Virus record (IMG/VR): IMGVR_UViG_2609459797_000001
Direction: 5' to 3' (one strand)
Length of the DNA: 10,867 bases
From: a virus
Taxonomy: Duplodnaviria; Heunggongvirae; Uroviricota; Caudoviricetes; Autographiviridae
A program made the position numbers and the translations under genes. Shown here one piece after another: positions 1,589-10,867 of the stretch. Positions within the stretch are counted from its first letter, which is position 1. Each line of letters starts with the position of its first letter. The notes under the pieces are model-generated. The model saw only the letters and a program-made list of their open reading frames with translations. It was not told the DNA's origin and did no database searches.

Positions 1589-2017
1589 TCACCCCGGATA
1601 AACAACGCCCAGCCCTTGGTTTTGTTGGCGGTAGCTCGCCAGCATCGCGTTCATGTTGCCAGGCGACAGCCCACACAAACGCCCAGCATGGTAGCCACCC
1701 TCAGCAGCGTTAGCAGAACGATGCACCACAGCACGCACGCGCCCGGTTCGGTGGCAATGATCCAGCACGGCAGACGCAAGGCGCAGCGGTTTACCTGTCA
1801 CCGCACAGCGTCGGTATTGATAATTCCACAGGAAGATACGGACAGCGGCCACATCAGCGCGGCGCAACTCCAGCCGACCGGAACCATTCAACAGGAAGCG
1901 ATACACATCTTCGAATACAGCAGCATTTGTAATCCGTTCAGCCAACGGCATGTTGCCGAGGTGTTCCAGATAGTCCCGCATCGCTTTTCTTAGTAGTTGG
2001 TCTGTCCGTGTAACCAT
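1589..2017 (-). CDS. Endonuclease VII-like (phage T4 gp49 family) junction-resolving nuclease
   Basis: Motif LDHCHRTGRVRAVV...ANAAEG matches the remembered endonuclease VII core (HLDHDHE...GKVRGLLCNLCNAAEG). ATG at 2017 with GGAG about 10 nt upstream; last gene of the minus-strand operon. Confidence 0.75.
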   Translation of the reverse strand: MVTRTDQLLRKAMRDYLEHLGNMPLAERITNAAVFEDVYRFLLNGSGRLELRRADVAAVRIFLWNYQYRRCAVTGKPLRLASAVLDHCHRTGRVRAVVHRSANAAEGGYHAGRLCGLSPGNMNAMLASYRQQNQGLGVVYPG

Positions 2018-2716: not shown

Positions 2717-3226
2717 TTAGGCAGCCTGCAACAAATCGGCTGGTGTTGAGGGATGGTATCTGGCTTTAGCTTTCAGGTACGCAGCACGTGCCGCCGCTTC
2801 GGATGTGAATAAGCCAAGGTGATGGCGTACACCGTCAACGCGTATGTAAGCCTCCCATTTGCTACAGCCTTTATTCCAGCTATATCCCCTTGCCTTGCGT
2901 CGGTTCTGGTCGTTTTCCCGCTGCGTAACCAAACGCAGATTGCATAGGCGGTTGTCGTCACGGATACCGTTGATGTGATCGATCTGCTTACCGTGAGGAA
3001 TAGCGCCATGCGCAAGAATCCACGCCACGCGATGGGCTTTTAGCTGGTACTGCTTGCCATCAAGTCGCAGGGCAACTTGACGATAGCCATCAGCTCGCCG
3101 GGTGGAGTCAGCATAGGAGCCAGCCTTAACCCGGCGTCGGTTAGCTTTATGGCACAAGCGACCTGTAACCGGGTCATACAGGAAAAGGGATCGCAGCAGC
3201 TCAGGGGCGTAAGCATCATTAACCAT
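2717..3226 (-). CDS. HNH homing-endonuclease-like protein with C-terminal AP2-type DNA-binding domain
   Basis: HNH_3-type motif AHRVAWILAHG...IDHINGIRDDNRLCNLRLVTQREN, followed by an AP2-like segment GYSWNKGCSKWEAYIRVDGVRHHLGLFTSEAAARAAYLKA. ATG at 3226 with GGAGGGG upstream. Confidence 0.85.
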   Translation of the reverse strand: MVNDAYAPELLRSLFLYDPVTGRLCHKANRRRVKAGSYADSTRRADGYRQVALRLDGKQYQLKAHRVAWILAHGAIPHGKQIDHINGIRDDNRLCNLRLVTQRENDQNRRKARGYSWNKGCSKWEAYIRVDGVRHHLGLFTSEAAARAAYLKAKARYHPSTPADLLQAA

Positions 3227-3242: not shown

Positions 3243-4238
3243 TTACGCAGATTGTCGGAAATTGATAACGCAATCAGGACGACGCAGCCCAACGTTGAAC
3301 AGGCGATATGAGTCCATCACCATCGTCATTTCGCGTTCATCATCCCACTGGCGATTAATGACGCTCTGCGCTTCGACCGTCAACAGTACCGAGGAAGGTT
3401 TAAACAGCGTCGCCCTCGTCAGCGCTTCCTCTGCGGTAACGTCATAATCAGCGCCCAGTTCATGCCCGGTAATGGCTTCCTGCGGGTAACTATTCAGCTC
3501 GATAACTCGCACCCCAGCGACATAGCCAACACGACGCCATGCGTAATCGTTGCCACTATCCCGGCTGTAACGGACGTTCATCAGCTTCTTATGTTCCATC
3601 AGGATGCTGAACCAAGCCGGGTCGATAAGCAGTACCAACTCCGCCACCGGAATATCTTTCTCAGTCAGGAATCGATTAACAGCAGCTTTAATAGCGCTAA
3701 CCAGCTCATTCGCGGCGTCTTCTTCGCTCCCCGCTGTCAGGTCGAGCGAGACAACGTTATCCGTCAACGGGTTAAACGTTGGTTGCAGTGTCGGCGGTGG
3801 TACAAAGTCAGTCGCTTTGATTAGCTGGATGGCGTGCGCTTCGTCGTAGAATTTAGCGTGAGCAGTACCGATATTGCGGCTCAGCTCTGCGCGAAAGGTG
3901 GGTGCAGTCCAGTCATCCTGATAGTCAATGGGGATGCGGATATAGCTCAGCGTATCCACAGAGATAACCAACTTGTCCGACTTAACGGCGGTAGGCTCCA
4001 GCGATTGCCCTGCTGTTCTGCCCTTCACCTCCAGATCACCACTCAGGCGATCAATGCGGTATTGGTTGCTGGCTTTCAGCGGCCTGTATGTAGACAGCCT
4101 CTCGGCCAGAAATACGGATTTGGACTCTAAACGGGTCTGGACATCCCGGTCATAAGCCTCGATGTGAATATCATTGTCGGATTCCACCCCGCCATAATGT
4201 GGGCGAAACAGATCGGGACTGTACGAAGTATCAGCCAT
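3243..4238 (-). CDS. Hypothetical 331-aa protein; motif pattern resembles HK97-fold major capsid protein of the T7 gp10 type (unverified)
   Basis: ATG at 4238 with GGAG 8-9 nt upstream. Ungapped, position-matched motif resemblance to T7 gp10 as I remember it: VLIYDIED versus IRIPIDYQDD near residue 100; ALTK...VP...DRVFYCDPDSYSAIL versus RFLTEKDIPVAELVLLIDPAWFSIL near 185-215; NVMGFEVVEVP versus YVAGVRVIELN near 240; KYAMG..GLRPE versus SYRLFNVGLRRPD near the C-terminus. Recall-based, needs profile confirmation. Confidence 0.75.
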   Translation of the reverse strand: MADTSYSPDLFRPHYGGVESDNDIHIEAYDRDVQTRLESKSVFLAERLSTYRPLKASNQYRIDRLSGDLEVKGRTAGQSLEPTAVKSDKLVISVDTLSYIRIPIDYQDDWTAPTFRAELSRNIGTAHAKFYDEAHAIQLIKATDFVPPPTLQPTFNPLTDNVVSLDLTAGSEEDAANELVSAIKAAVNRFLTEKDIPVAELVLLIDPAWFSILMEHKKLMNVRYSRDSGNDYAWRRVGYVAGVRVIELNSYPQEAITGHELGADYDVTAEEALTRATLFKPSSVLLTVEAQSVINRQWDDEREMTMVMDSYRLFNVGLRRPDCVINFRQSA

Positions 4239-5686: not shown

Positions 5687-5926
5687 TTATGCAACCTCTT
5701 GTGATGTAACTCGGCGGTGCGCCAGTTCAAGTAAAAGCATGTGCGCATGTACGCATCGGGCAGGAATCATCTTCTGTCCGTGGTACGCTTTGCCGAGATC
5801 TTGTCTGTCGATCTGGTACACACGAGCCAAGTCGATTTGACGAAGATTCAAGGCGTCAGCAATGAATTTCAGTTGTTGCCCGCAATCAGCCGCGCGGCGT
5901 GGCTCCATTAAAATGATGGTGCTCAT
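5687..5926 (-). CDS. Small XRE/Cro-like helix-turn-helix protein (start placed at the internal ATG with a good RBS)
   Basis: Segment LKFIADALNLRQIDLARVYQIDRQDLGKAYHGQKMIP has the XRE-type HTH pattern. The ATG at 5926 has GAGG about 9 nt upstream, whereas the listed start at 5968 overlaps the upstream gene. Confidence 0.55.
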   Translation of the reverse strand: MSTIILMEPRRAADCGQQLKFIADALNLRQIDLARVYQIDRQDLGKAYHGQKMIPARCVHAHMLLLELAHRRVTSQEVA

Positions 5927-7604: not shown

Positions 7605-9449
7605 TCAGAGGAAGCGGGAGATGTAACCCCAGTTAGCATTGTGGGGCTGGTACAACGCCGCCAAATCATCAGGCGCATCCCCCAGCGCCAACGATGACCA
7701 GAGTATGAAAGCACGGGCAGGTTGACCATCGCGCCCGGCACGGCCAACCATTTGCACCAAATCGGGCAGGTCTTCCGGAACATAAGTGACAATTACGTTA
7801 CGCACGTCAGAAATATCGGCTCCGAGGCCAAAGGCTTTGGTCGCCACCAGAACAGCGCCGGGCGTGCTGGAGAACCACTCTGCGTTGGCGTGCCGCTGAT
7901 CGCGGCTCAGTCGCTCAACGTCAGAATGATAAGGCCGGGCACGGTCTCCCAGTTCGTTGAGATACGCATACAGCATCTTTATGCTGTCCACCATCACCAA
8001 TGTCTTTTCATTCTCCGGCAGCGCATTGACCAGACCAACGGCAGCCCGGCGCGGAGTTACGCATTGCTGAGCAGGAATAAGCTGGATGTTTTCACGGGCA
8101 GCACTGGCGCGGTAGGTGAGGAACTCGCCACGACAGCCAAGCTCTTTCATCAAGCCAGACTCATCACCTTTTCGCAGGGTCGCAGTAAACGCGCACCGCT
8201 GAGCATCCGGGAAGGCATTTTGCAGGGTGTGCTTCATTGCAGGGAAAGCGTCCCGGAACTCCCATTCATCAACGGTGTGCACCTCGTCAATGATAAATCT
8301 GTCCGCACCAGCGGCCATCAGCGCGGCAAGCACCTGACTACCCGGCACCAGATGTTCAGGCGAAACGACTGCGACGCGGAAAGCACCAGCAGCCAACCCC
8401 GCAAGTTGCTGCGCATTACGCCGCTTCGGTAGTTTATCGCCAAATGCCACAGCGTGAACGCCAGCCTCCCTTAACTGCTGTAGCACCTGCTGCTTGATAG
8501 TGTTCGTCGGCACGACAATAACGGTCATACCTTCGCCAGCATCAGACTCAAATTGCAGGGCATAGGTGAATGCAGCCGTCTTTCCGTACCCGGTCGGCAG
8601 TACGGCCAACATATCGCGGTCACGGGCAAACACAGCGGCGGCCACGTCGAGTTGACCGGGTCGCCAGTCATGACCATCTGGCGGCGGTAACGGTACGAAT
8701 GCCGGGCGGTCGCATTGCTCCAGCTCACGGAACCTGTACGGCGCTGTAACCAGCGGCGGGATGGACGGCGGCAGGTCAGCGCCGCCAACGTCACAGTGTT
8801 GGTTCTTCGTGTTGAAATTGTCCTTAGTGGATTTCAGCTCACTGCCCCATAGCTGGTGAAACTCCGGGCTATCCCCGAGGGTGTCAAAGTCAGCGTGGCG
8901 CATCGCCTCCAGCTTGCTCATGCCACGATTGATGCGGCGGATGGTCTTCTCATCACAAATCAGAAACTCGCGACAGGCTTTAAGAAAGGCGTTTTGCCCC
9001 GTGGTCGCTTCCGGGATGGCGTGCTCACGCGGTTTCAATGCGGCATCGTCTACGCGAACACCGGGGAAATCTGGTGGCAGCGGCTCGGCGTACCGGGCAG
9101 GCTTTTTGTTTAGCCACATCACCAGCTCAGCGCGGCGGCAGTGGATTGCATCGCCCGGCTGGATAATCTGGCGCAACCCTGCATCAGCGCGGCGGGCGTG
9201 TGTCTTGCGTCCGATTCCGTTAGCCTCTTTCCATTCTCGGAACGACATAACAGAATCGTCAGCGTTAAAGTAAAACTCTTGTGACTCCGTATTAAACGCA
9301 GCCTGTATGGGTTTACGCTTTACAGGACATTGCTTGTTACGCGATACAACTATCTTATCCGCAACCAGTTGCTGAGCATCCGCAGGCGCAGTGTTCAGCG
9401 GTTCGGCGTCAGCGGCCAGCGCAAGCAGGCGGTTCAATCTCGTGGGCAT
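7605..9449 (-). CDS. SF2 DExH/RecQ-like helicase (614 aa) with a roughly 270-aa non-helicase N-terminal extension
   Basis: Helicase motifs in order: LPTGYGKT (motif I), VVPTNT (Ia), DEVH (II), FTAT (III), VGRAGRDGQ (VI). ATG at 9449 with GGAG 9 nt upstream. Confidence 0.9.
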   Translation of the reverse strand: MPTRLNRLLALAADAEPLNTAPADAQQLVADKIVVSRNKQCPVKRKPIQAAFNTESQEFYFNADDSVMSFREWKEANGIGRKTHARRADAGLRQIIQPGDAIHCRRAELVMWLNKKPARYAEPLPPDFPGVRVDDAALKPREHAIPEATTGQNAFLKACREFLICDEKTIRRINRGMSKLEAMRHADFDTLGDSPEFHQLWGSELKSTKDNFNTKNQHCDVGGADLPPSIPPLVTAPYRFRELEQCDRPAFVPLPPPDGHDWRPGQLDVAAAVFARDRDMLAVLPTGYGKTAAFTYALQFESDAGEGMTVIVVPTNTIKQQVLQQLREAGVHAVAFGDKLPKRRNAQQLAGLAAGAFRVAVVSPEHLVPGSQVLAALMAAGADRFIIDEVHTVDEWEFRDAFPAMKHTLQNAFPDAQRCAFTATLRKGDESGLMKELGCRGEFLTYRASAARENIQLIPAQQCVTPRRAAVGLVNALPENEKTLVMVDSIKMLYAYLNELGDRARPYHSDVERLSRDQRHANAEWFSSTPGAVLVATKAFGLGADISDVRNVIVTYVPEDLPDLVQMVGRAGRDGQPARAFILWSSLALGDAPDDLAALYQPHNANWGYISRFL

Positions 9450-9472: not shown

Positions 9473-9775
9473 TCAAGCAGCTTTCCGCCAGATGTATCGG
9501 CGGTGGACACCTCTCTTTTTGGTCACGCCGTGCAGCTTTCGCCATGCGCGGAAGGTCATAACGGAACCATCGGGATTGTAGTAATACACACGCAGACGTT
9601 TGTGGAATGCTCCCTGTACCGTCTTGTCCGTGACAGCGCAGCGCACGTAATGCGGGATAACAGTTTCACTCCAGACCAGTTGTTGCGGCGTGGCGCTAAT
9701 CGTGCTTAACGCTTCGGCGGCAGCGGTTGCCAGCTCCAGTTGCAGGCGTGAATTCATGTGGCGTAAATCAACCAT
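9473..9775 (-). CDS. Small protein (100 aa) paralogous to the N-terminal ~90 residues of the downstream helicase
   Basis: ATG at 9775 with GGAG about 8 nt upstream. Ungapped alignment to helicase residues ~3-92: QQLV, C-x-V, K, Q-AF, Y-N-D-SVM-FR-W, G, K, RR all in register. Confidence 0.7.
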   Translation of the reverse strand: MVDLRHMNSRLQLELATAAAEALSTISATPQQLVWSETVIPHYVRCAVTDKTVQGAFHKRLRVYYYNPDGSVMTFRAWRKLHGVTKKRGVHRRYIWRKAA

Positions 9776-9818
9776 GATGTAAGCTCCAGAAATTAAGGTG
9801 AGTTTAGAACGGGGCGCA

Positions 9819-9875
9819 GGACGGAAGCGCCGGAAGTGTGGCGGTGGCGGTTGAGGCGGCGTCGGTGTTCCGTCC
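9819..9875. other. GC-rich interrupted hairpin (stem GGACGGAA/TTCCGTCC around a 41-nt GGCGG-repeat loop) in the operon leader
   Basis: Perfect 8-bp inverted repeat at 9819-9826 and 9868-9875, with an inner CGCCG/CGGCG pair and three GGCGG repeats in the loop; lies 45-100 nt upstream of the first start codon of the minus-strand operon. Confidence 0.3.
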
Positions 9876-10123
9876 CTCTTTAGTAGTGATCTTCATCCAG
9901 TGATTTGGATTTAACTCAGGCGCAACAGGCAATGCAGCGGGATAGCGCGAGGGCGGGCTTGTGGTCTCATCTTCCCACAGTAGTAACCCTTATCGGTCGG
10001 TAGCCTTCCCAATATAGTAGCTTTCAAGTCAAGAATTCTATCCGGGGCTTGCCTTCCCTTTGTAGTCACTTTCATCCACGCATACCCCGGACAGCCCTTG
10101 TGGCGTCTGGTGCGACAGGCAAT
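9876..10123. repeat. Iteron-like imperfect direct repeats in the noncoding region upstream of the helicase operon
   Basis: CTCTTTAGTAGTGATCTTCATCCA (9876-9899) versus CCCTTTGTAGTCACTTTCATCCA (10056-10078); GGCGCAACAGGCAAT (9919-9933) versus GGTGCGACAGGCAAT (10109-10123); CTTGTGG twice; CAATATAG twice; TAGTAG-type hexamers four times. Confidence 0.4.
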
Positions 10124-10252
10124 TTCAGGTAGGTGTATTAGGGATGTGAAATTGGTTCTTGGCGTAGCTCTTTCCTACAATATAGACACTTTTAAATTTA
10201 TTAATAAATGCAGTCAGTTAAACGGTTATCTTTATTACCTATAACTTTCACA

Positions 10253-10274
10253 GATCAATAGATTAAAATTGATC
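10253..10274. promoter_or_regulatory. Palindromic operator-like site GATCAAT-N8-ATTGATC containing two GATC (Dam) sites
   Basis: Perfect 7-bp inverted repeat with an 8-bp AT-rich spacer, located just upstream of the promoter-like hexamers. Confidence 0.35.
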
Positions 10275-10287
10275 GGAATTATCAGCT

Positions 10288-10325
10288 TTAAATTTCTTGA
10301 CAGCTATTTGTATAATGGTTTTAAG
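10288..10325 (+). promoter_or_regulatory. Rightward sigma70-like promoter candidate (overlapping alternatives)
   Basis: Perfect TATAAT at 10311-10316 with TTAAAT 17 bp upstream (10288-10293); alternatively perfect TTGACA at 10297-10302 with TTTAAG 17 bp downstream (10320-10325). AT-rich upstream region. Confidence 0.35.
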
Positions 10326-10329
10326 AAGT

Positions 10330-10470
10330 TGTATCGGAGTGAGCGACTGGCAGTGAGCGTAGCGAACGGTAAGCCAGTCGGCGAAGAACGAAGAGTATGA
10401 GATGACTTGTCATCGAATACGATGAGTGATTGAGCGCTACGAACGAAGATACGCTGTATAACAGTTAGAA
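10330..10470 (+). other. Hairpin-rich untranslated segment downstream of the promoter candidate; possible small RNA or leader, interrupted by IS1
   Basis: No ORF longer than a few codons. 8-bp stem CGACTGGC/GCCAGTCG (10344-10351 and 10373-10380); two mutually exclusive hairpins sharing TCATC (GATGA-CTTG-TCATC at 10401-10414 and CATCG-AATA-CGATG at 10411-10424); GAACGAAGA repeated at 10386-10394 and 10441-10449. Confidence 0.2.
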
Positions 10471-10527
10471 CAGTTAACTAGCTGAATATGAATAATACAT
10501 TTAATATTTATCTGGATTAGTATTTTC

Positions 10528-10867
10528 GGTGATGCTGCCAACTTACTGATTTAGTGTATGATGGTGTTTTTGAGGTGCTCCAGTGGCTTCTGTTTCTATC
10601 AGCTGTCCCTCCTGTTCAGCTACTGACGGGGTGGTGCGTAACGGCAAAAGCACCGCCGGACATCAGCGCTATCTCTGCTCTCACTGCCGTAAAACATGGC
10701 AACTGCAGTTCACTTACACCGCTTCTCAACCCGGTACGCACCAGAAAATCATTGATATGGCCATGAATGGCGTTGGATGCCGGGCAACAGCCCGCATTAT
10801 GGGCGTTGGCCTCAACACGATTTTACGTCACTTAAAAAACTCAGGCCGCAGTCGGTAACCTCGCGCA
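10528..10867 (+). mobile_element. IS1 insertion sequence, 5' portion (left terminal repeat and insA); continues beyond the window
   Basis: GGTGATGCTGCCAACTTACTGAT at 10528 onward matches the IS1 end repeat as I remember it; insA starts 55 nt inside, as in IS1. Same orientation as the IS1 fragment at 1-392. Confidence 0.9.
10583..10858 (+). CDS. insA: IS1 InsA (91 aa)
   Basis: Translation [43 protein letters not shown]...LKNSGRSR recognised as IS1 InsA from memory; complete ORF with stop at 10856-10858. Confidence 0.9.

Follow-up and report, generated by a model that had tools for sequence, protein, structure and literature searches.

A conserved repeat array as a candidate set of helper-phage promoters on a capsid-encoding phage satellite

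Five copies of a 24-nt motif upstream of the helicase operon of a chromosomal island are probably tandem promoters for a bonnellvirus-like single-subunit RNA polymerase. The copies occupy positions 9873–10195 of the window (the whole 10,867-nt stretch of DNA analysed here) and face a minus-strand operon, whose transcription from them would induce the satellite. The motif is repeated, uniformly oriented and restricted to this spot in the window; it is conserved across the family of related islands and shared with bonnellvirus phages, in which its variable bases change in concert. The first-pass annotation had proposed an origin or control region at positions 9819–10123, and the second of these alternatives holds up: the region is a real, conserved, non-coding cis-acting array at the helicase operon, with a promoter-like motif that points into it.

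The operon runs on the minus strand from position 9775, through genes for a 100-aa protein and a RecQ-like helicase, down to capsid, HNH and endonuclease VII genes. Its relevant features are:

9776..9800, minus strand: ribosome-binding region (GGAG) of the first operon gene, 0.81–0.91 identity to the window in relatives
9473..9775, minus strand: first operon gene, a 100-aa protein paralogous to helicase residues 1–82 (BLASTP, 41% identity, E = 2e-18)
7605..9449, minus strand: RecQ-like DEAD/DEAH helicase of 614 aa (Pfam DEAD and Helicase_C), with an N-terminal ~250 aa of unknown fold
3243..4238, minus strand: major capsid protein gene, located distally in this operon (phrog_267, E = 1e-69)

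The ribosome-binding region is the most conserved stretch beside the ATG. The 100-aa gene is accessory, being swapped for another gene or missing in the gene tables of relatives. The helicase matches the RecQ family of NCBIfam below the family cut-off, and a predicted model of its N-domain, of poor quality, matched no DNA-binding fold. Searches of the island against Pfam, PHROGs and NCBIfam recognised only the major head protein, HNH, endonuclease VII, small HTH proteins and the RecQ-like helicase; full-length islands additionally carry a tyrosine integrase and a serine recombinase. The island proteins scanned included no recognisable primase or DNA polymerase, and no repressor gene was found beside the array region. 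Known satellite families are marked by psu, delta, sid and alpha (P4), by alpA and pri-rep (PICI), by repA (PLE), or by a complete head module that includes portal, protease and large terminase (cfPICI). Markers of P4-like, PICI, cfPICI and PLE families were all lacking from the island in the same three databases. The island capsid shares 54–56% identity with Bonnellvirus capsids. We regard the island as a capsid-encoding phage satellite. The copy in the window is cut by IS1 at both ends and may be inactive.

Read in the direction of the operon, the repeated motif is ATGAAAG-nn-ACTAYWA-GG. A 24-nt matrix finds five copies in the window:

9873..9896, minus strand: predicted promoter copy w1, ATGAAGATCACTACTAAAGAGGGA read operon-ward, closest to the operon; 24.7 bits
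9970..9993, minus strand: predicted promoter copy w2, ATAAGGGTTACTACTGTGGGAAGA; 23.3 bits (17.0 bits with a phage-only matrix)
10004..10027, minus strand: predicted promoter copy w3, TTGAAAGCTACTATATTGGGAAGG; 20.9 bits (phage-only, 17.1 bits)
10052..10075, minus strand: predicted promoter copy w4, ATGAAAGTGACTACAAAGGGAAGG; 26.2 bits (phage-only, 22.5 bits)
10172..10195, minus strand: predicted promoter copy w5, TTAAAAGTGTCTATATTGTAGGAA; 16.8 bits (phage-only, 10.4 bits)

All five lie in the same direction on the minus strand, and neither strand of the 10.9-kb window holds another. The same matrix averaged 0.003 matches in 1000 dinucleotide shuffles, so the repeats that the first-pass annotation had seen are real and far beyond chance. 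A repeat search of the window independently returned a four-copy family, CTTCCC-N4-TAGTA, at 9871, 9971, 10005 and 10053, and longer pairs that join 9991–10026 with 10039–10074, 9880–9899 with 10059–10078, and 9916–9933 with 10106–10123. These pairs account for the 'roughly 60-bp' repeat units described earlier (about 9871–9933 and 10053–10123), and the recurring TAGTAG and CAATATAG elements are both parts of the 24-nt motif. The originally flagged range encloses four of the five copies; w5 lies beyond it, against an AT-rich block. Tandem Repeats Finder reported no repeats in the window because the copies are dispersed. A matrix trained on distant relatives, without the window, still recovers three of the five copies (w1 at 19.3 bits), and with one built from phage sites alone w2–w5 are the sole matches in the window, all operon-facing. 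Copy w1 is missed by this ungapped phage-only matrix because its spacing is off by a few bases. Two open reading frames of 42 and 54 aa run through motif copies and are by-products of the ATG that the motif contains. Together with alignment indels of many lengths, this indicates that the array region is non-coding, in agreement with its first description as free of ORFs.

The array recurs in every related island that we examined, at the same place and in the same orientation. Close relatives carry four to seven copies, and L010, a distant island with a helicase only 47% identical, has 10–11 units at 33–39 bp spacing. In two islands of 19–21 kb (L001 and L002), no copy of at least 16 bits lies outside the array. 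The motif persists while the spacers between copies diverge across islands; the array zone is the most diverged part, with 58–67% identity to the window versus ~90% for the neighbouring module. The L010 units were also considered as sigma-70 promoters (TTGATG-17-TATAAC) and rejected, since their −10 element ends without its invariant T, and in the window copies a −10 part is missing altogether. Likewise, a second phage group behind L010-type islands was considered and dropped, as their capsid again points to bonnellviruses. In islands of the E2348/69 type, 210–270 bp are 82–94% identical to the terminal non-coding region of the phage, including a phage-type promoter, which independently points to the copying of bonnellvirus cis-elements by these islands.

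Bonnellviruses are lytic Autographiviridae that encode their own single-subunit RNA polymerase. In six of their genomes the motif occurs as dispersed single copies at five matching positions:

Phage site 1, in gene direction: upstream of the replication genes
Phage site 2, in gene direction: directly after the RNA polymerase gene
Phage site 3, in gene direction: about 270 bp past the site after the RNA polymerase gene
Phage site 4, in gene direction: inside the internal-virion-protein gene
Phage site 5, leftward: some 0.5 kb in from the left end of the genome, the one copy against gene direction

The satellite-derived matrix gave five matches of at least 15 bits in Kosakonia virus Kc261 and four in ROV85, where ~0.07–0.08 were expected. 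A de novo search of Kc261 for direct repeats, with no satellite input, returned the same element as its top family (TTATGAAAGCTACTATATTG). All copies in one genome agree at the variable bases, and these change between genomes, reading GCTACTA in Kc261, GTGACTA in ROV85 and RZ4, and GTGTCTA in altidsur; sites in Lidtsur and J8-65 are looser at these bases and low-scoring. Uniformity extends even to sites inside two unrelated ORFs, the mark of a DNA signal that co-evolves with one reader. Two of the five phage sites lie within ORFs, each opening with an ATG in frame, and coding may account for some of their conservation. Lidtsur, the first phage scanned, had shown weak matches only, and the clear signal came from its relatives Kc261 and ROV85.

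The window copies mix these phage types. The w3 core is GCTACTA, as in Kc261, and 18 consecutive bases of w3 are identical to Kc261 5850–5867; the w4 core is that of ROV85 and RZ4 and the w5 core that of altidsur. Cores of w1 and w2 read GATCACTA and GGTTACTA, and another core type is GGTAACTA. With the phage-only matrix, w4 at 22.5 bits exceeds every score in simulated windows (maximum 19.2). Other search methods returned little: a BLAST search with the joined repeat copies gave chance matches only among 50,697 phage records, BLAST of 9776–10527 against phages gave no match, and exact-pattern scans of IMG/VR with w1-type and L003-type cores gave single chance matches and no multi-copy contig. 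Short degenerate motifs such as this one call for a matrix, and BLAST is unsuitable for them. The island capsid is at most ~55% identical to that of any sequenced phage, which suggests that the true helper is unsampled. A homologue in the six bonnellviruses was found for the capsid alone; the helicase and all other island proteins had none.

Could the copies be inert, either as phage DNA remnants or as recurrent starts of genes (ATGAAAG), gained by recombination and no longer with a function? The islands clearly take up phage DNA, two phage copies coincide with an in-frame ATG, and short window ORFs traverse the repeats. However, similarity to the phages stops at the motif edges (the 18 nt shared with Kc261), indels of many lengths rule out coding, and the motif outlasts its diverging spacers, so that islands with a helicase of 47% identity keep 10–11 copies in place and orientation. 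We therefore consider functionless leftovers very unlikely.

The phage sites resemble promoters of the T7 group. In Kc261, ROV85 and altidsur, the sites just after the polymerase gene agree with the T7 promoter at 13–14 of 23 ungapped positions and at six or seven of the eight positions of the −7 to +1 core; for comparison, the consensus promoters of T7 and SP6 share 11 of 23. The phage sites thus have the ~23-nt length, a core like CACTATAG and the purine-rich start of this group, several copies face the genes in a polymerase-encoding phage (four of five positions), and the specificity bases are uniform within and different between the genomes of Kc261, ROV85, RZ4 and altidsur. Window copies are weaker, matching the T7 core at four to six of eight positions in approximate registers, with GGGAAGG or AGAGGGA after it. 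From position, repetition, co-variation and resemblance to T7, we infer that the bonnellvirus motif is a polymerase promoter; the published bonnellvirus descriptions that we examined make no mention of promoters. By analogy with T3 and T7, G 9878 would be the first base of the w1 transcript, 103 nt ahead of the ATG at 9775, and predicted starts across the array are 9878, about 9975, about 10009, about 10057 and about 10177.

The first-pass annotation had likened the repeats to the iterons of an initiator or to operators, and an island protein (the helicase N-domain or its 100-aa paralogue) might bind them and either melt the AT-rich DNA or repress the operon. Direct repeats beside a helicase gene and an AT-rich block fit such a role, the array diverges most, as specificity determinants often do, and duplication of the first 82 helicase residues as a small protein could supply a competitor for binding sites. 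The same motif, however, is found as dispersed single copies in six phages that share nothing with the island save the capsid, and the 100-aa gene is missing from many islands that retain the array. Start-to-start spacing in the window is irregular (97, 34, 48 and 120 bp), and fits a classical origin poorly. Among host-factor sites, neither an IHF consensus nor a convincing DnaA box was found, the only DnaA-like matches having one mismatch and lying elsewhere. Repressor operators fit no better. The copies are asymmetric, without dyad symmetry, and among sigma-70-like promoters facing the operon the best match is 8/12 and none overlaps the repeats. Given also the likeness to T7-group promoters, we judge an iteron origin or autoregulatory site improbable. 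Serine recombinase res sites, small-terminase pac sites and nut/boxA were considered by eye and set aside, as orientation, asymmetry and position do not fit.

Three further features lie in the predicted leader ahead of the first gene:

9819..9875, no strand assigned: hairpin of the first-pass annotation, an 8-bp stem (9819–9826/9868–9875) with a 41-nt GGCGG-rich loop, read from the sequence
9840..9862, no strand assigned: GGCGG-rich tract, where alignments place a sixth promoter copy (ATGATGGTAACTACTAAGRAGGAC) in L003–L005, L008, L009 and L013
9813..9831, minus strand: small leader hairpin (GGCGC, 9 nt, GCGCC)

The larger hairpin exists as described, with GGACGGAA (9819–9826) pairing with TTCCGTCC (9868–9875), but its significance and conservation did not stand. 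By our estimate ~0.3 such stems with such a loop are expected by chance in 300 bp; the hairpin appears in folds of the leader, which folds no better than shuffles (z = −0.63). Among relatives the perfect 8-bp stem is kept in L001 only, and as a DNA palindrome the hairpin is not conserved. In most relatives the 'loop' holds one more motif copy, and in the alignments the GGCGG tract of the window takes the place of a sixth predicted promoter. The 3′ arm coincides with the start of the predicted w1 transcript and would therefore give w1 RNA a 5′-terminal stem-loop. For the small leader hairpin, one compensatory pair (C-G to U-A) occurs in two related islands, L005 and L013; this is probably a single event and lends the hairpin weak support.

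These structures raise the possibility that the repeats act as RNA in a long 5′ leader, as Shine-Dalgarno-like purine runs, protein sites or antisense targets (as in P4 immunity), with the hairpin as an attenuator. Each copy, read operon-ward, does end in a Shine-Dalgarno-like purine run (GGGAAGG, AAGGAG), a weak −10-like TATATT at 10179–10184 could begin a 400-nt leader, and the compensatory change points the same way. Against this, the purine runs have no start codon at a usable distance and correspond to +1 to +6 of T7-type promoters, and the phage copies are single and dispersed. On neither strand is folding of the array region better than that of shuffles (z = +0.5 and +2.75), and Rfam families were absent from the window and four related loci, except for a tRNA. 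A role at the RNA level is thus hardly to be expected.

Beyond w5 lie two further features:

10176..10316, no strand assigned: AT-rich block (70–80% A+T) behind the promoter array, with a GATC-bearing palindrome at 10253–10274
10287..10316, plus strand: outward promoter-like site, TTTAAA-18-TATAAT (10/12 matches)

The block is ~90% conserved among window-type islands, and a conserved T-poor, purine-rich stretch (~10330–10470) follows the outward site, ahead of the IS1 end at 10528. At the position of the outward site, E2348/69-type islands hold the 210–270 bp copied from the terminal region of the phage, with an outward phage-type promoter that stands back to back with the inward array; a short AT-rich spacer lies between the two. 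Such layouts recall a T7-style origin, in which the phage-type promoters and, in the window, the adjacent 140-bp AT-rich block would act together, and transcripts made by the helper polymerase would prime DNA synthesis by the helper replisome. Such a role is compatible with promoter function, and the direct contact of w5 with the block, the back-to-back arrangement and the lack of a recognised primase or DNA polymerase among the scanned island proteins all favour it. In T7, however, the AT-rich stretch lies downstream of the promoters, whereas here it lies behind five inward ones; L010 has an array without a neighbouring AT-rich block, and 5–11 copies exceed the need of an origin. We hold the T7-style origin to be unlikely, though the most credible of the alternatives; any origin role would be of this kind, with phage-polymerase transcription beside AT-rich DNA, and not of the iteron kind.

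We return, then, to promoters for a helper polymerase. In an uninfected cell the operon, which has no good host promoter, would be silent. An infecting bonnellvirus would make its own RNA polymerase, which would recognise the promoter copies on the satellite and transcribe the satellite genes, tying induction directly to the helper. We infer both the firing of the island promoters and the silence of the operon otherwise. As the promoter-type copies point into the helicase-to-capsid operon, the island is probably on only during infection by such a phage, and since the five copies differ at bases that vary between phages, the array may respond to the polymerases of several helpers. A wider reading seems to us evenly balanced between right and wrong. 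These islands of E. coli (including EPEC E2348/69), Enterobacter, Citrobacter, Cronobacter and Kosakonia would form a family, so far undescribed, of satellites that encode a capsid and have lytic, T7-like bonnellviruses as helpers. They would sense infection without any repressor through a stack of promoter variants for the helper polymerases, a bacterial counterpart of virophage promoter mimicry. The mix of variants would act as a bet-hedging 'polymerase sensor' for several helper lineages. The array may, in addition, titrate the phage polymerase and thereby interfere with its helper. As part of the same reading, the islands would copy the helper's terminal non-coding region, and probably packaging-site sequence, for replication and packaging.

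Known bacterial satellites are mostly induced via repressors that the helper inactivates or via helper activators of the host polymerase. If our reading is true, helper-polymerase promoters on the island would be a simpler and very specific induction switch, and satellites would extend to the lytic T7-like coliphages, a group widely considered for therapeutic use. The motif would also be the first candidate promoter consensus for bonnellviruses, and it predicts phages able to mobilise islands of clinical E. coli, such as E2348/69. Such islands would offer a natural test bed for the diversification of single-subunit polymerase promoter specificity under parasite pressure. The library that we searched yielded no literature on satellites of Autographiviridae or on satellites with phage-polymerase promoters.

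The promoters of T7, T3, SP6 and K11 share with the bonnellvirus sites a ~23-nt motif with an ACTATAG-like −7 to +1 core and a purine-rich start, a few variable upstream bases that are uniform within most genomes, and several gene-facing copies per phage. In contrast to these, the upstream half of the bonnellvirus motif (ATGAAAG) matches none of the four classical consensus sequences and its sites are predicted ones; the window copies, moreover, sit on a chromosomal island, five in 320 bp and with mixed variable bases. The primary origin of T7 combines the promoters phi1.1A and phi1.1B with an AT-rich stretch downstream of them. The island likewise has tandem phage-type promoters beside an AT-rich block, but on the opposite side. 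Among satellites, PLE has an iteron origin with RepA. A description of PLE is given in PMC7145576. Like PLE and the Rep-ori of SaPI/PICI, the island sets a non-coding repeat array beside a replication-type gene on a phage satellite; unlike theirs, its repeats are irregularly spaced, promoter-like and common to helper phages that lack the island helicase. The late promoters of P4 (Psid and PLL, served by P2 Ogr or P4 Delta) also tie satellite expression to the transcription apparatus of the helper. P4, however, employs the host RNA polymerase with an activator on TGT-N12-ACA, whereas the island, which has no psu, delta, sid or alpha, would employ the helper polymerase on its own promoter copies. 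The logic proposed here is shared by the virophages: in the pairs Sputnik/mimivirus and mavirus/CroV, virophage genes bear the late-promoter motif of the giant virus and are expressed only by the helper machinery, so that a helper promoter motif is carried by the parasite. The virophages differ in being eukaryotic, in depending on multisubunit viral polymerases, and in having a single promoter per gene instead of a tandem array of variants before one operon.

The repeat array upstream of the helicase operon is rather likely to be a tandem set of promoters, carried by a satellite of T7-like phages and read by the RNA polymerase of the helper phage. The island that carries it, a proposed capsid-encoding satellite, fills ~10 kb of the window and has IS1 at either end (both 99% identical to IS1 in many plasmids and phages). 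Nearly all window genes lie on the minus strand in one long operon, which also encodes an HNH endonuclease, a protein resembling endonuclease VII, and a number of small proteins, of which some have helix-turn-helix motifs.

Main features of the island
1-393, IS1 end flanking the island
3243-4238, minus strand, major head protein (capsid; phrog_267, E = 1e-69)
7605-9449, minus strand, RecQ-like DEAD/DEAH helicase, 614 aa
9473-9775, minus strand, 100-aa protein, first gene of the operon
10528-10867, left end of IS1, right flank of the island

Intact related islands come from E. coli (one, in EPEC E2348/69, adjoins a tRNA-Leu gene), Enterobacter, Citrobacter, Cronobacter, Kosakonia, and Trabulsiella. 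They share the order tyrosine integrase, capsid module, helicase, ~1.3 kb of non-coding DNA, and serine recombinase, and the array region opens the non-coding stretch, immediately ahead of the operon. The right-hand IS1 interrupts the stretch at the point equivalent to ~3758 of the related island L003, so the window has lost the remaining non-coding DNA along with the tRNA-Leu side and the serine recombinase. Nor is the integrase side present; this IS1-cut copy is probably immobile. A plus-strand ORF of 358 aa (458-1534) has no family match; in L001, an E2348/69-type island, its homologue overlaps a DNA cytosine methyltransferase gene at the latter's end, which makes the ORF the probable nuclease in a restriction-modification cargo.

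A repeat search of the window recovered a four-copy family, CTTCCC-N4-TAGTA, and longer repeat pairs, which together make up repeat units of 60–70 bp, put at roughly 60 bp in the first-pass annotation. An iteratively refined 24-nt matrix (plus-strand consensus TCTCTCCTTAGTAGTAACCTTCAT, 18 bits) finds five copies, all on one strand and facing the operon, and no further match of at least 12 bits on either strand of the window. One thousand dinucleotide shuffles gave a mean of 0.003 matches, and a matrix built from two distant islands only (helicase 47–48% identical) still ranked three window copies top. The repeats are therefore genuine, and the fifth copy extends them beyond the 9819-10123 interval originally flagged. 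Alignments of that interval with relatives carry indels of many lengths, which bears out its description as non-coding.

Motif copies in the window, read towards the operon
w1, 9873-9896, minus strand, core GATCACTA, sequence ATGAAGATCACTACTAAAGAGGGA
w2, 9970-9993, minus strand, core GGTTACTA
w3, 10004-10027, minus strand, core GCTACTA, sequence TTGAAAGCTACTATATTGGGAAGG
w4, 10052-10075, minus strand, core GTGACTA, sequence ATGAAAGTGACTACAAAGGGAAGG
w5, 10172-10195, minus strand, core GTGTCTA

Array position and orientation are identical in every relative examined, and the copies face the operon. The first-pass annotation is partly supported: this is a control region, one of the roles it proposed, but probably not an iteron or operator array. 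Close relatives hold 4–7 copies, L012 four, the Kosakonia island two, and the distant island L010 (helicase 47% identical) 10–11 units spaced 33–39 bp apart. No match of at least 16 bits lies outside the array in the 19–21 kb of L001 and L002, the E2348/69-type islands. The motif persists even though no part of the region has diverged more than the array zone: across 9840-10200, mean identity to the window is 67% at motif positions and 58% in spacers, against ~90% in the adjacent AT-rich and purine-rich module and 85–89% in genes. Two further features were seen in L010: a different repeat zone of GTTACTTCT-like units downstream of the array (~2860-3130, between array and HNH gene), and an inserted pRha-family gene (1938-2579) whose called ORF extends into the first promoter copies.

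The closest relatives of the island capsid are those of Bonnellvirus (54–56% identity), ~42-kb lytic Autographiviridae that have a phiKMV-like gene order and encode a single-subunit RNA polymerase of their own; this kinship led to the promoter reading. In the direction of the operon, the repeats resemble promoters of single-subunit RNA polymerases, for which the T3 consensus is AATTAACCCTCACTAAAGGGAGA and the T7 consensus TAATACGACTCACTATAGGGAGA. The satellite-derived matrix gave five matches of at least 15 bits in Kosakonia virus Kc261 (~0.07 expected; maximum of 2 in 100 simulated genomes) and four in Pantoea phage ROV85. The largest direct-repeat family of Kc261, found without satellite input, is TTATGAAAGCTACTATATTG, and w3 has 18 consecutive bases in common with a Kc261 site. 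Across six bonnellviruses the sites occupy matching positions.

Positions of the phage sites
Site 1, upstream of the replication genes
Site 2, directly after the RNA polymerase gene
Site 3, ~270 bp beyond site 2
Site 4, within an internal-virion-protein gene
Site 5, terminal non-coding region, pointing leftward (nucleotide 548 in J8-65, a genome with annotated true ends; ~290 bp inside its 259-bp terminal repeat)

Compared with the T7 consensus without gaps, the copies that immediately follow the polymerase gene agree at 13–14 of 23 positions, and at 6–7 of the 8 core positions from -7 to +1; T7 and SP6 agree less well. The variable bases are uniform within each of four bonnellvirus genomes and different between genomes: the core is GCTACTA in Kc261, GTGACTA in ROV85 and RZ4, and GTGTCTA in altidsur, and is looser in Lidtsur and J8-65. 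Two of the putative phage promoters sit in unrelated ORFs and themselves open with an in-frame ATG (e.g., 20045 and 33168 in L018; phage loci L017-L022). They too follow the promoter type of their genome, so that the encoded residues shift (MKATTM, MKVTIM, MKVSTM); evolving promoters appear to be altering the amino acids of two phage proteins that are unrelated to each other. This pattern, holding even inside ORFs, argues for a DNA signal co-evolving with a single reader. The cleanest test is a scan of both strands of the window with a matrix built from 21 phage sites only: just four matches reach at least 8 bits (~0.34 expected), and all four are array copies facing the operon (22.5, 17.1, 17.0, and 10.4 bits). 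No mapped bonnellvirus promoter was found in the literature on these phages, and capsid identity of ~55% at best places the true helper outside the sequenced ones.

The iteron reading of the first-pass annotation is unlikely in view of these comparisons. The capsid is the sole island protein with a homologue in the six bonnellviruses, so the phage copies are not binding sites kept for the island helicase; window spacing is irregular, IHF sites are absent, and no DnaA site is convincing. An operator array fits poorly as well, because the sites lack dyad symmetry and host-type promoters facing the operon are no better than 8/12. Host-factor sites, sigma-70 promoters, RNA structure, and a DNA-binding fold of the helicase N-terminus were each checked, and none was supported. 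The 100-aa protein is a paralogue or duplicate of helicase residues 1–82 (41% identity), the sole confidently modelled portion of the helicase N-terminus. In relatives its position holds another gene, of 145 aa, or is empty, which marks a variable slot between ribosome-binding site and helicase; as many islands retain the array without this gene, it is not the essential partner of the array.

The GC hairpin noted in the same annotation exists (stem 9819-9826/9868-9875, 8 bp; loop 41 nt) but is unremarkable. By our estimate, such a stem arises by chance about once per few regions of this size, predicted leader folding is no better than in shuffles (z = -0.63), and only one relative retains the perfect stem. 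Most relatives have a sixth motif copy at the loop position, replaced in the window by the GGCGG tract. A small nested hairpin (9813-9831) shows one compensatory pair, probably a single event. The T7 gene 10 leader has a 5′-terminal stem-loop, and by analogy the 8-bp stem would put one on the w1 transcript.

Beyond the array, L001 and L002 carry 210–270 bp with 82–94% nucleotide identity to the bonnellvirus terminal non-coding region. This stretch adjoins the array, faces outwards, and includes ~110 nt that are almost identical, a leftward phage-type promoter, and a purine-rich tract.

Terminal-region matches
Islands: L001 17346-17612; L002 14083-14287
Phage loci: L018 41273-41521; L019 23864-24104; L020 10533-10778; L021 41410-41644

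In the phage the stretch could serve as an origin, in end processing, or as a non-coding RNA; its sequence lends further support to the link between islands and bonnellviruses. The window has a different module here (10196-10527), shared by eight islands at ~90% identity. It holds an AT-rich block containing the palindrome GATCAATAGATTAAAATTGATC, a promoter-like TTTAAA-18-TATAAT that points outwards, and then T-poor sequence in which two hairpins lie. No sequenced phage, Rfam family, or plasmid matches the module, whose source may be a helper lineage that is not yet sampled. Upstream of the serine recombinase gene, L015 (1581-1625, 45 nt) and L010 (314-346, 33 nt) are 91% identical to phage sequence just after the endolysin gene (L020 10158-10201; L018 40922-40965). 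That sequence lies near the terminal-repeat boundary (the J8-65 repeat begins at 40723), making the short matches candidate copies of a packaging or cleavage site. Separately, a G+C-rich block of ~150 nt (ccactac...ggcgagcg...gcgagaagcgcagc) between purine-rich tract and recombinase gene is kept even in the most distant islands (L001 ~17700-17850; L002 ~14440-14590; L003 ~3860-3950; L010 ~1690-1790, minus strand); it has no Rfam match and could function as a recombinase site or as a structured RNA.

As helper-phage promoters, the copies would leave the operon silent in uninfected cells, since no good host promoter faces it. On infection, transcription of the satellite genes by the phage polymerase would begin at as many as five sites; G 9878, 103 nt ahead of the ATG, is the predicted start closest to the operon. 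The core of w3 is of the Kc261 type, that of w4 of the ROV85/RZ4 type, and that of w5 of the altidsur type; those of w1 and w2 match none among the sampled phages. This mixture suggests that a single island can answer several helper lineages, which would also account for the faster divergence of the array relative to the DNA around it. The array may have a second, non-exclusive role as a T7-style origin, as phage-type promoters adjoin the AT-rich block at 10176-10316, although the geometry is unlike that of the T7 origin and L010 lacks the block. We found no description of such capsid-island satellites, or of satellite promoter arrays, in the literature searched. As promoters read by a helper polymerase, the repeats would join two known themes, T7-type promoters and helper-dependent satellite induction.
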